A stretch of 14,169 bases of DNA from a virus (IMGVR_UViG_2698536549_000025:1-14169), one strand, 5' to 3'; shown: positions 1,311 to 3,929, counted from the stretch's first letter. A program made the numbers and translations. The notes: generated by a model not told the origin, from the letters alone.

Positions 1311-1419
1311 AATCACGAACAAGAGGCCAAAAAGAATACAGATTTATAAGTTACTGATTTTTATTGGTTAACTGGTTTTTTATACATTAGCGAATTACGC
1401 GTTAAAGCGTGCGAAAAAA

Positions 1420-1450
1420 GGCATAAAACAAGATTTTATGCCTTTGTATT
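1420..1450 (+). terminator. Weak terminator-like hairpin (GGCATAAAA/TTTTATGCC) followed by TTTGTATT
   Basis: Inverted repeat 1420-1442 with a 5-nt loop and a T-rich tail; the stem is AT-rich, so termination efficiency is uncertain. Confidence 0.3.
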
Positions 1451-1540
1451 AACATGAATTTAAATGATTTTATCCTGATTATTCCTCTTTCTGTAAACCA
1501 TACGACATCAACATTTGCCATTCACCACACTAGCGGGAAC

Positions 1541-1570
1541 AATACGACACAATAAGACACCTGATGACTC
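1541..1570 (+). promoter_or_regulatory. Tandem 10-mer repeats AATACGACAC / AATAAGACAC (plus a degenerate third) just upstream of the alpA ribosome-binding site
   Basis: Direct tandem duplication with one mismatch at 1541-1560, ending about 25 bp before the alpA start; candidate regulator binding site in the alpA control region. Confidence 0.4.
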
Positions 1571-1594
1571 TTTAAGAAACGAAAGGGGGCAATA

Positions 1595-1783
1595 GTGTTA
1601 AGCACTGATCGGTTTATACGTGAAAAAGAATGCGAAAAGCTAACAGGCCTTAGCCGCTCATGCCGCTACCGCCTGGAAAAGGCCGGACAATTCCCATCAC
1701 GTCGTAAACTTGGCGGGCGTTCTGTTGGCTGGTCTTTATCTGAGGTTTTGGCCTGGAAGGATAGCTGCAAGGCAGTTCACTAA
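1595..1783 (+). CDS. alpA: AlpA-family phage transcriptional regulator / excisionase-like helix-turn-helix protein
   Basis: 62 aa with GTG start preceded by AGGGGG 5 nt upstream. The stretch CEKLTGLSRSCRYRLEKAGQFPSRRKLGGRSVGWSLSEVLAW matches the AlpA/Xis-type MerR-like HTH pattern; position directly after int is typical of P4-like elements and Gram-negative PICIs. Confidence 0.8.
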   Translation: MLSTDRFIREKECEKLTGLSRSCRYRLEKAGQFPSRRKLGGRSVGWSLSEVLAWKDSCKAVH

Positions 1784-1923
1784 AAAGACTGGCGGCACAC
1801 AGTCGCCACACATCCACTAATACAGAGATATAACCATGAAGATTGAATATGCGCCCGAACGTGGGCGGGGATTCGTTCGCCCTGGTGAAACTGAAAAACA
1901 ACAAAATTGGGGTTTTTCAGGCA

Positions 1924-1953
1924 TAAAAAAAGCGGCCCCGATATGGAGCCGCC
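1924..1953 (-). terminator. Rho-independent terminator, probably for the minus-strand RHH gene (possibly bidirectional with alpA)
   Basis: Stem GCGGC (1932-1936) / GCCGC (1948-1952) with the A8 run at 1924-1931 on +, which is a U8 run immediately after the hairpin on the minus strand. Confidence 0.45.
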
Positions 1954-2047
1954 TTTCTGAACAATTAACCTGCTGCGCCTTATGTGTATGTGATCCCAAA
2001 CATAAGCACGGGAATGATAGCCGCTATCAGGCTGGTGGGCAATGTAA

Positions 2048-2239
2048 TTACCCTTTGGGTTCTATGCCGCGCCGCTTTAGTTCTGCCCTGGCTAATTCTT
2101 TAAACCAGTTACCAAGGGTTAGACCGTCAGAAGTTGCAGCTTCATTTACTTGTTGGCGTAGCTCTTTACTGATTCTGATTTGGAAGGTTGGAGACCATCC
2201 CTCACCGCGTGGCGATTTATCGCGCTTTAATGTTGACAT
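2048..2239 (-). CDS. Small ribbon-helix-helix (Arc/CopG-like) DNA-binding protein, candidate repressor
   Basis: 63 aa; PTFQIRISKELRQQVNEAATSDGLTLGNWFKELARAELKR fits a beta-strand/helix/helix RHH layout. It is the only convincing minus-strand gene inside the element and is divergent from the main operon. AGGAG lies 12 nt upstream of the ATG, which is a long spacing. Confidence 0.55.
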   Translation of the reverse strand: MSTLKRDKSPRGEGWSPTFQIRISKELRQQVNEAATSDGLTLGNWFKELARAELKRRGIEPKG

Positions 2240-2261
2240 GTACGTACGTAACTCCTATTAT
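2233..2261 (+). promoter_or_regulatory. Near-consensus sigma-70 promoter (TTGACA, 17-bp spacer, TATTAT) driving rightward transcription
   Basis: TTGACA at 2233-2238, 17-bp spacer, TATTAT at 2256-2261; the -35 hexamer overlaps the start codon of the divergent RHH gene. Confidence 0.6.
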
Positions 2262-2282
2262 CATTTCCGTTACGTACGTACA
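2239..2282. promoter_or_regulatory. Operator: perfect 14-bp inverted repeat TGTACGTACGTAAC / GTTACGTACGTACA, each half containing the 10-bp palindrome TACGTACGTA
   Basis: Palindromes at 2241-2250 (inside the promoter spacer) and 2271-2280 (around the predicted +1), 30 bp centre to centre, bracketing the -10 element. Confidence 0.6.
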
Positions 2283-2371
2283 ATATCAGTAGGTACAGTA
2301 AAAAGCAAAGCCCCGCAAGTGTCGTTACCACTCGCAGGGCTTCTAACCAACAACGTAAACTAGGAGCCGTT

Positions 2372-2569
2372 ATGGTTGCCGTAAATCATACTCCACGACT
2401 AGCACACACACAAACGGCCTTTGTGTGGCGTTTTCTGGCACTGAGTGCCGGAGAATCTCAAATCATCCACGTAACCGCCTGGACGGAACGCGAAGCGCGT
2501 AACCGTTGCCCGTCCGGTTGTGTTGCTGTATTTGCCGCCCGTATTCGCCAGGGGTCACATCATGCGTAA
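2372..2569 (+). CDS. Small hypothetical protein, paralog A (FVWRF ... ARIRQG motifs)
   Basis: 65 aa with AGGAG 5 nt upstream of the ATG. Shares the FVWRF and (V/A)ARIRQG segments and its RBS context with the ORF at 2856-3029. Confidence 0.5.
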   Translation: MVAVNHTPRLAHTQTAFVWRFLALSAGESQIIHVTAWTEREARNRCPSGCVAVFAARIRQGSHHA

Positions 2570-2662
2570 AAACCGCTTGCAAAAAATTATAACGGGGCTG
2601 TATGCTTCCCCCGTCGCCCACATGGCGACCGGGTTTAGCAGCCTGAATACTGTAGCGGACAG

Positions 2663-2691
2663 CCGCTTATATTCCGATATGCGGTTTTTTT
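2663..2691 (+). terminator. Terminator-like hairpin plus T7 run inside the A-B interval
   Basis: CCGC (2663-2666) ... GCGG (2681-2684) with internal AT pairing, followed by TTTTTTT at 2685-2691. It lies inside the in-frame ORF 2562-3029, which makes coding status of that interval doubtful. Confidence 0.4.
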
Positions 2692-2855
2692 GTGTCCGTA
2701 AGCCTACCCATACCCGCATTATGGCGGGGCGTAACGGGGGAGCCTTTGCGCTCGCTGGTTCCTACAGTGCCAGTCTGCTAACCCTGTTACGTCTCGCCAC
2801 CCCGTTTAGCAGCGTAGTAGCGAGACTCCTTAAAATTACTGTAGGAGCCTTTCAC

Positions 2856-3029
2856 ATGGCTGTATCCGCACGCCCTTACTTTGTCTGGCGCTTTATGCAG
2901 TGCCAGGAAAAACAAAGATCACTCTTTACCGTCACGGCAGCAACAGAAGGCGAAGCACGCGCCCAGCTGCCGCACGCACATCTTATTTTTGTCGCCCGTA
3001 TTCGCCAGGGGGAAACCTATGCACAATAA
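2856..3029 (+). CDS. Small hypothetical protein, paralog B; could alternatively be the C-terminal part of a longer ORF starting at ATG 2562
   Basis: 58 aa from ATG 2856 with AGGAG 8 nt upstream; MAVSARPYFVWRF...FVARIRQGETYAQ parallels paralog A. No stop separates it from the upstream frame starting at 2562. Confidence 0.45.
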   Translation: MAVSARPYFVWRFMQCQEKQRSLFTVTAATEGEARAQLPHAHLIFVARIRQGETYAQ

Positions 3030-3716: not shown

Positions 3717-3929
3717 ATGAAACTTAAATATTCTGGCTTAACTGCCAGTGGCAACACTCACCCTAAATTTACGCGCGGTGATATTNNNNNNNNNNNNNNN
3801 NNNNNNNNNNNNNNNNNNNNNNNNNNNNNNNNNNNCGCGCCGCATAACGTGCCCACCAGCAACGCCAGGGCACGGGCAAACATCCAGAAGCTGAAAACCA
3901 TGATTAACGGATTCAGGGGCAAGAAATGA
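3717..3929 (+). CDS. ORF interrupted by the assembly gap; true structure unknown
   Basis: The reading frame spans the N-run at 3786-3835, so length and frame across the gap cannot be trusted. The downstream part ends in an ATGA overlap with the rep start. Confidence 0.2.
   Translation: MKLKYSGLTASGNTHPKFTRGDIXXXXXXXXXXXXXXXXXAPHNVPTSNARARANIQKLKTMINGFRGKK
3786..3835. other. Assembly gap / masked region (50 N)
   Basis: Run of 50 n characters in the sequence. Confidence 1.

Follow-up and report, generated by a model that had tools for sequence, protein, structure and literature searches.

A divergent Arc-like gene and its paired operator sites as a probable immunity cassette in a capsid-forming phage satellite

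The DNA analysed here is a 14,169-nucleotide (nt) viral stretch (IMGVR_UViG_2698536549_000025:1-14169, hereafter the window) which, judged by its genes, is a capsid-forming phage-inducible chromosomal island (cf-PICI), a type of phage satellite. Positions 2048 to 2300 of the window probably form a self-contained immunity cassette, composed of an Arc-like repressor of the ribbon-helix-helix (RHH) class, two operators (O1 and O2), promoters that face each other, and a conjectured override through AlpA-driven read-through. The case is built on the sequence anatomy of the region, the fold class of the protein, the co-variation of its contact residues with both operators, and the exchange of the cassette among islands. 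The features are listed in Table 1.

Table 1. Features of the cassette and of the neighboring part of the window
Feature	Position	Strand	Detail or basis
RHH gene, 63 aa, modelled as Arc-like ribbon-helix-helix	2048-2239	-	open reading frame; fold and profile evidence
Rightward sigma-70 promoter of the main operon	2233-2261	+	TTGACA 2233-2238, 17-nt spacer, TATTAT 2256-2261
Candidate operator O1	2239-2252	.	core GTACGTAC at 2240-2247; left arm of 14-nt inverted repeat
Candidate operator O2	2269-2282	.	core GTACGTAC at 2274-2281; right arm of 14-nt inverted repeat
Candidate RHH promoter	2280-2288	-	extended -10 TGaTATTGT, read from 2288 to 2280; inferred
Intrinsic terminator of the RHH transcript	1925-1958	-	GCGGCUCC-AUAUC-GGGGCCGC, then U7; folding
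Leader hairpin	2307-2343 (2297-2343 with U-rich tail)	-	terminator-like; inside the operon 5' leader, just upstream of the RHH promoter
alpA	1595-1783	+	Pfam Phage_AlpA, E 5e-18; convergent with the RHH gene
Icd-like gene (host cell division inhibitor family), operon gene 1	2372-2569	+	NCBIfam NF033153, E 5e-18
c4-a1b1 target	2600-2649	+	Rfam 45.5 bits, below the gathering score of 46.7
isrK-like (terminator) element	2613-2691	+	Rfam 35.7 bits, below the gathering score of 50
C4 antisense RNA (RF01695)	2717-2804	+	Rfam 71.5 bits, above the gathering score of 45; model full length, 1-87

The rightward promoter matches the consensus at 11 of 12 positions and is the best promoter-like site within 1400-3000; its transcript is predicted to start at about 2268. 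Exact copies of the palindrome TACGTACGTA lie on either side of its -10 element, one in the spacer (2241-2250) and one at about +3 to +12 (2271-2280). There is no further exact copy in the 14 kb, and 0.00 are expected by chance (200 shuffles). Both copies lie inside the arms of a perfect 14-nt inverted repeat, and comparison with relatives identifies the 8-bp core GTACGTAC as the conserved unit. The core of O1 fills the promoter spacer and abuts the start codon of the RHH gene, while O2 covers the predicted start region of the rightward transcript (about +3 to +14) together with the -10 and start of a candidate leftward promoter. An initial annotation of this DNA, made from the sequence alone, had described the promoter pointing into the operon, the overlap of its -35 with the RHH start codon, and the twin 10-bp palindromes in the spacer and around +1, all of which hold. 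It had placed the palindromes three helical turns apart, which is right for the 10-mers (30 bp), and the figure is refined to 34 bp, about 3.2 turns, for the conserved cores. That account contained neither a leftward RHH promoter nor the nature of the cassette as an exchangeable module.

The candidate leftward promoter is an extended -10 whose last two bases fall within the O2 core, with a weak -35-like TTGCTT at 2308-2303 on the minus strand and a predicted start at about 2273. Because minus-strand terminators bound the RHH unit on both sides, its promoter must sit within about 2257-2306, and TGaTATTGT is the sole candidate there. A third core-like site, GTAGGTAC, with one mismatch, lies at 2289-2296, 15 bp to the right of O2 and within the putative spacer of the RHH promoter; comparable partial or full third cores occur in some relatives (for example, GTGTGCAC in locus L038), and many have none. 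Beyond the two exact sites and this one, no extra operator copies were found in the window, including the alpA and int promoters and the late genes.

The minus-strand gene facing the operon promoter encodes the protein MSTLKRDKSPRGEGWSPTFQIRISKELRQQVNEAATSDGLTLGNWFKELARAELKRRGIEPKG. Its ATG lies at 2239-2237, its stop codon at 2048-2050, and an AGGAG Shine-Dalgarno sequence at 2252-2256 on the minus strand, 12 nt before the ATG. All 72 unique homologous coding sequences (CDS) keep the open reading frame (ORF) unbroken, with the antisense frame open in just 27 of them, and by this comparison the ORF is a real gene. Other long minus-strand ORFs tested in the window gave no family matches, in keeping with the earlier view that this is the only convincing minus-strand gene. 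The family is small, with 75 clusters at E<=1e-3 in 1.84 billion representatives.

Family models match the protein weakly, yet in a way that is weakly consistent in kind with the RHH label. The Pfam HicB match (E 0.0024) reaches 18.2 bits, short of the cut-off of 21, and covers only residues 18-46, against a model of 51 positions; the NCBIfam YlcI_YnfO_N match (E 3e-4) scores 20.7 bits against a cut-off of 30; and MobA is among the other sub-threshold matches. For the allele in Escherichia coli O157:H7 Sakai, the Pfam Arc score is 12.4 against a cut-off of 20.4. Among the PHROG families, the protein matches 'Arc-like repressor' (E 1.9e-4). When a profile of 15 homologues was searched against the PDB, P22 Arc came first, at a marginal E of 0.042. 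In that profile alignment, P17-T18-F19-Q20-I21-R22 fall onto Arc P8-Q9-F10-N11-L12-R13; the base-contacting residues of Arc are reportedly Q9, N11, and R13.

Evidence from the fold is better than that from the family models. The AlphaFold2 monomer has a mean predicted local distance difference test score (pLDDT) of 75.6, with values of 84-92 across residues 21-60, and consists of an extended segment (17-23) and helices at 25-37 and 42-56. The extended segment coincides with the predicted beta-strand, PTFQIRI. A Foldseek search with the model placed Arc on top (probability 0.99, template modeling score 0.84), and the further top matches, CopG, PutA-RHH, AmrZ, and ParG, are all ribbon-helix-helix proteins. 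The model and its Foldseek matches thus present the strand-helix-helix chain of about 45 residues that characterizes the MetJ/Arc superfamily; another hallmark, reading of a palindromic operator by alternate strand residues, appears here in the co-variation only. By its model, then, the 63-aa protein is an Arc-like ribbon-helix-helix protein, and the initial 'RHH-like' label stands, with the weak family models in agreement.

Several databases call homologues 'HicB family antitoxin', the protein itself has the weak HicB match, and many RHH proteins are antitoxins; the gene might on that account encode the antitoxin of a toxin-antitoxin pair. However, a protein of 63 aa lacks the N-terminal (RNase-H-like) domain of HicB, its HicB score stays below the cut-off, no HicA or other toxin gene is adjacent in the window, where its strand has no ORF on either side of it, and same-strand neighbors vary among the 75 loci compared below. 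What the RHH gene has as a conserved partner is the divergent operon promoter. We rejected the antitoxin reading for the missing toxin partner, the missing HicB N-domain, and the sub-threshold score, and we hold it to be very improbable.

The comparative set comprised 75 loci from Enterobacterales (genome scan), to which the phage collection contributed two more, one in a Pasteurella satellite and one in a record of a Klebsiella phage. The initial annotation had proposed looking for the dyad in related islands, and there the core indeed occurs twice per locus, 33 to 35 bp apart and in a class-specific form. The start codon and TTGACA share bases (ATG/GTG/TTG-TCA-A) in 51 unique satellite-type loci. 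In 54 satellite-type CDS, Ser2 is encoded by TCA without exception, which yields TTGACA. A -10 with A2 and T6 at a spacing of 16-19 nt is kept in 41 of 47 unique promoter regions. An 8-bp core of the form GTnnnnAC stands directly after the start codon (+1) in the unique loci, with a second copy at +34 to +36, and the core-to-core distance in 43 unique loci is 34 bp (n=30), 35 bp (n=10), or 33 bp (n=3). In 37 of 51 unique loci, with every specificity class represented, the leftward TGnTAnnnT keeps the same distance from core 2. The information profile shows conservation at the -35, at both cores, and at the leftward TG-n-TA, with the TA positions prominent, and poor conservation of the DNA between the sites.

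These conserved elements bear on the possibility that the palindromes serve autoregulation only, governing the leftward RHH transcript (with the small gene or cargo behind it in relatives), and that operon transcription begins at the alpA promoter rather than at TTGACA-17-TATTAT. Both sites also lie within the RHH promoter and 5' untranslated region, many relatives carry variable genes behind the RHH gene, and reporter data for the island EcCICFT073 show AlpA-dependent expression downstream of alpA (PMC6092414). However, the invariant -35, maintained through Ser2 in all 54 CDS, and the usable -10 in 41 of 47 regions are hard to explain in that way, and the window has no gene behind the RHH gene. 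Autoregulation alone is quite unlikely in our estimation.

The contact residues and the cores change together. We took residues 18, 20, and 22, which align to Arc Q9, N11, and R13, as the contact triad. The triad TQR, found in 43 unique loci, goes with GTACGTAC, exact in 34/43 at site 1 and 40/43 at site 2. The triad QRR of Sakai and EDL933 goes with GTGGTCAC in both sites, and QKR of Yersinia with GTGGCCAC, again in both. PHR is paired with GTGCACAC and GTGTACAC, ISR with GTATGGAC and its reverse complement, QQR of Pasteurella with GTATATAC and GTAATTAC, and AQR with GTGCGTAC and GTACACAC. Throughout the seven classes, R22 and the outer GT..AC are invariant. The TQR class extends over Escherichia, Morganella, Yersinia, Xenorhabdus, Pectobacterium, Brenneria, Pantoea, Serratia, and Erwinia. 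TQR proteins with only 50-57% identity to the query retain GTACGTAC and the 67%-identical Sakai allele does not, which argues that the operator follows the triad and not overall divergence. Co-variation of triad and core across seven classes, at both sites, argues strongly, if indirectly, for binding of the protein to these sites. A small ORF with weak family matches could be a product of chance, and the palindromes with it; the absence of any exact copies expected in shuffles, the intact ORF in all 72 sequences across many genera, and the conserved, co-varying operators contradict this, and such a coincidence is exceedingly improbable.

Other homologues extend the distribution of the gene. 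Hidden Markov model searches, single-sequence and iterated, of the neighbors in the 75 loci found AlpA in 16 and Icd in 19, so that the partnership with alpA is seen for part of the family only. A group of Pantoea and Erwinia homologues (L052-L064, L076-L081), with the strand RS(S/A)AFQ(L/I)RIH, lacks the arrangement of TTGACA and operators; in those loci a leader-type hairpin adjoins the start codon and the neighbors look chromosomal, and these may be remnants or domesticated copies. The phage collection was nearly devoid of homologues (6 records), and no helper-phage origin or counterpart was found in it. The full cassette (RHH gene with TTGACA across its start codon, both cores, extended -10, and leader hairpin) is present in two GenBank 'phage' records, Klebsiella phage P12620-1 (L082 2800-3200; 106.5 kb), where the RHH gene is concealed beneath an antisense annotation, and Pasteurella phage Pmp8 (L083 4840-5180; 15.3 kb), which looks like a cf-PICI-type satellite filed as a phage.

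The cassette also behaves as a unit in comparisons between islands. Homology to most related E. coli islands breaks at 2048, the RHH stop codon, and restarts at 2300. An alignment with the Sp7 element of Sakai, the same as EcCIEDL933, gives flank identities of 93.8% over 534 nt and 95.7% over 255 nt. Between the flanks, nothing in Sp7 could be aligned with the switch segment 2240-2299, and for the RHH CDS there is a local alignment only (79% identity in 81 nt); by blastn, identity over the cassette is 70.8%. Read from these alignments, 2048-2300 is a module swapped between conserved flanks. The closest E. coli relative (L001, strain 2015C-3121) is 99.7% identical over the cassette. About 360 additional bases, and with them an 'ash family' pseudogene, separate its leader from its Icd-like gene (L001 3873-4211, against about 2372 in the window), and its replication module is of the primase type, against the helicase type of the window, a further sign of mosaicism.

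The prototype EcCIEDL933 carries an unannotated allele of this cassette. The Sakai/EDL933 RHH allele (L005 2501-2692) has a TTG start with the Shine-Dalgarno sequence AGGTGA 5 nt ahead, and about 160 complete E. coli genomes match it. In EDL933 and Sakai, RefSeq instead annotates a 247-aa plus-strand 'hypothetical protein' downstream of alpA (Sakai ECs_1576, L005 2058-2801; EDL933 P7249_RS15655, L002 3329-4072), which runs antisense across the RHH gene, a 62-aa minus-strand ORF, the promoter, and the operators. From this arrangement, the annotated protein is probably spurious. A window ORF at 1836-2363 (175 aa) is the same artefact, with a remnant at 1836-2048.

Two further islands, EcCICFT073 (L084 2200-2500) and FORC_029 (L003 3773-4060), have a 59-aa minus-strand gene of the YlcI/YnfO family in the same slot. 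They carry repeats of their own, placed likewise around TTGACG-17/18-TAnnnT, in the spacer and just past the -10: GTGTT[C/T]AACAC three times in FORC_029 and TGGGCCACACC twice in EcCICFT073, where a leftward extended -10, TGaTAATCT, adjoins the second repeat. As in the window, the small gene lies between alpA and the Icd-like gene and the same leader hairpin is present; in contrast, some 55 bp separate the gene start from the -35, so that the two do not overlap, and the repeats differ. Profiles of the RHH family and of the EcCICFT073 YlcI/YnfO protein showed no significant similarity when compared, and therefore we claim the same architecture and not homology. In several islands, with either type of regulator, a minus-strand ORF of 57-62 aa (...ERFAPCAF..EQFLKEYREK...) follows the regulator gene (L005 2270-2458, L003 3542-3730, L084 1969-2142, L004 2131-2310); it is absent from the window left of 2048, has no family match, and may be posed as a possible partner of the regulator.

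Published genetics bear on how much such a repressor could control. Mutation of alpA in EcCIEDL933 abolishes induction and transfer (10.1101/2022.09.08.507074), and an alpA-overexpressing strain, without helper, has been used to promote its reproduction (10.1101/2025.02.11.637232). Since this island bears the cassette, AlpA must act above or beside the repressor. In EcCICFT073, AlpA is an activator, and helper phages raise alpA transcription (PMC6092414). The word 'repressor' is absent from the cf-PICI preprint (10.1101/2022.09.08.507074), and the region after alpA has been described as variable, its gene being 'of unknown function' (10.1101/2025.02.11.637232). Our literature search for an RHH, HicB, or YlcI regulator in PICIs returned nothing relevant.

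The initial annotation had cast the RHH protein as a candidate master switch that keeps the operon silent, comparable to Stl of the Staphylococcus aureus pathogenicity islands, and as a possible target of a helper-phage anti-repressor. On the strong form of this reading, the protein alone would silence the island until a helper-phage protein binds and inactivates it. Like stl/rpr in Gram-positive PICIs (PMC6092414), the RHH gene is transcribed away from a repressible operon promoter, in both cases between the int side and the replication/packaging operon, and the strongly conserved N- and C-terminal tails of the family (MS.IKRDK.PKG..., ...GIEPKG) lie outside the DNA-contact residues and could offer a surface to a partner. 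However, the requirement for alpA and the effect of its helper-free overexpression in a cassette-bearing element, together with the action of helper phages through alpA transcription in EcCICFT073, speak against it. Stl and Rpr are, moreover, larger helix-turn-helix proteins; the RHH protein has neither homology nor fold relation to them and gave no helix-turn-helix family match. Such a master repressor is unlikely. Of the original claim, operator binding is made very probable by the co-variation, and the placement suits the blocking of the rightward promoter; the role of sole silencer is not supported. A C4 antisense-RNA layer also lies in the operon. As to a helper anti-repressor, the published data point to AlpA, and nothing here indicates inactivation by a helper protein.

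For the cassette as we propose it, we infer binding itself, repression, both transcription starts, and the AlpA link, in the following way. RHH dimers would recognise the GTACGTAC core through the beta-strand residues T18, Q20, and R22. Occupancy of O1 and O2 would block the early operon, that is, the Icd-like genes, the C4 RNA module, replication, and then the capsid and packaging genes. With O2 overlapping the leftward -10 and start, the protein would limit its own synthesis. The facing promoters, with starts about 5 bp apart, would allow RNA polymerase on one to exclude it from the other, and once repression is lost, the strong operon promoter would silence RHH synthesis and lock the ON state. 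Because alpA and the RHH gene converge on a hairpin (1925-1958) that is weak on the plus strand, read-through is proposed as the override: AlpA-driven rightward transcription would pass the hairpin and run antisense over the RHH gene and operators, both supplying operon transcript and tipping the switch.

Several points weigh against this proposal. The 12-nt spacing from Shine-Dalgarno to ATG is long, and the curated family-model matches are all sub-threshold. The AlphaFold2 monomer contains no beta-strand, so that the RHH assignment comes through the helices, the alignment, and fold matches of weak E value; the missing strand is expected, because the RHH sheet forms only in the dimer. Site 1 is degenerate in nine TQR loci, and 14 of 51 loci have no exact leftward TGnTAnnnT. 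The loci are related and their counts overstate independent events, the independent evidence being the seven specificity classes. At 34 bp, the cores do not lie on exactly the same face of the DNA, and the adjacent-site cooperativity between dimers seen in Arc, MetJ, and CopG is not obviously possible at this spacing. The AlpA read-through is purely conjectural. Finally, with AlpA necessary for induction, the repressor would be at most one regulatory layer.

The proposed cassette shares features with several known systems. P22 Arc, its best sequence and fold match, is likewise a small RHH protein with an N-terminal arm, and in P22 immI, as here, the promoter of a phage 'early/anti-immunity' operon contains the operator and base-contact positions are equivalent. 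Arc acts as the repressor of both Pant and Pmnt, divergent promoters that overlap (PMC2724298); the same logic, one protein on two overlapping opposite promoters, is proposed for the window. In contrast, Arc binds as a dimer of dimers to one 21-bp operator with adjacent half-sites, whereas the window has two 8-bp palindromic cores bracketing a -10. Furthermore, arc is co-transcribed with ant, and the window gene is divergent, in a Mnt-like position; an ant homologue was not identified in the window operon. The sequence similarity is marginal, and the window is a satellite with an operon of Icd, C4, replication, and capsid functions, not a phage. CopG and MetJ also use short palindromic boxes overlapping a promoter. 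The MetJ met-box is an 8-bp palindromic box per dimer, which the window core resembles, but the boxes of CopG and MetJ are adjacent and cooperating, and here they are more than three turns apart. The immI region of P1/P7 likewise combines C4 RNA, icd, and ant, and the window operon has a C4 RNA, Icd-like genes, and an a1b1-like target. A protein repressor, C1, controls the equivalent P1 promoter as well, at Op51; the window differs in that its repressor candidate is the adjacently encoded RHH protein and in having two Icd-like genes.

Hairpins border the RHH unit on both sides. The one at 1925-1958, positioned after alpA, folds at -21.7 kcal/mol on the minus strand (z -4.98) and at -12.3 kcal/mol on the plus strand; it was established by folding and is not listed by the terminator scan. 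The leader hairpin at 2307-2343 folds at -27.6 kcal/mol on the minus strand against -16.3 kcal/mol on the plus strand. Folding each sequence on both strands favored the minus strand in 51 of 51 unique loci, mostly with a following U-tract, and by this measure the hairpin is clearly selected on that strand. It may end an antisense RNA against the region of the ribosome-binding site of the Icd-like gene, or it may insulate the RHH promoter. The leader hairpin gave no Rfam family match. No consensus structure came from RNAalifold when 21 minus-strand sequences were aligned with MAFFT, indels misaligning the stems. A conserved CTAACCA(A/C)nAACGT flanks it (window 2297-2358) and resembles the single-stranded CUAACC of C4 RNA.

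The assignment of the window to the cf-PICIs comes from its gene content, which has the marks of that group: int, alpA, a replication module, and its own capsid, protease, portal, and terminase genes. The tyrosine integrase ORF lies at 1-1230, and the replication module comprises an AAA_25 helicase and a single-stranded DNA-binding protein (Pfam matches). Virion genes matched are those for the major head protein, prohead protease, portal, and small and large terminase (TerS, TerL); tail genes were not found, as judged solely from the ORF list of the window. The left end is 94-96% identical to the Sp7 prophage-like element of Sakai, which is also present in EDL933 and whose size fits the 15.4 kb published for EcCIEDL933. 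There are two Icd-like ORFs, the first preceded by an AGGAG Shine-Dalgarno sequence (2362-2366) and the second at about 2880-3029. From its Rfam matches, 2600-2804 is a P1-immI-like riboregulator inside the operon driven by the 2233-2261 promoter; a literature search linking C4 RNA to PICIs returned nothing relevant. A run of 50 N (masked or unsequenced) occupies 3786-3835, within a small ORF at 3717-3929.

The different induction strategies of Gram-positive and Gram-negative islands have been called 'a mystery' (PMC6092414). Tentatively, and with more doubt than confidence, we suggest that the divergent gene between alpA and the Icd-like gene, whether RHH (with at least seven specificities) or YlcI/YnfO, is the repressor layer of Gram-negative PICIs and cf-PICIs, forming a bistable, allele-specific switch, and that AlpA induces by convergent read-through that silences the repressor and clears the operators, not by classical activation. 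Whether Gram-negative PICIs have a repressor is an open question, and none has yet been described for cf-PICIs; the present analysis offers a concrete candidate with its operators. The pair, as read from its sequence, would be a system of the P22 Arc/Mnt kind. An allele in EcCIEDL933 and an analogous cassette in EcCICFT073 make the question directly testable in available strains and with available helper phages. The analysis also corrects an annotation error propagated through O157:H7 genomes, the 247-aa ORF laid over the RHH gene. Seven matched protein-operator specificities on so small a scaffold could serve studies of beta-sheet DNA recognition or the design of orthogonal repressors.

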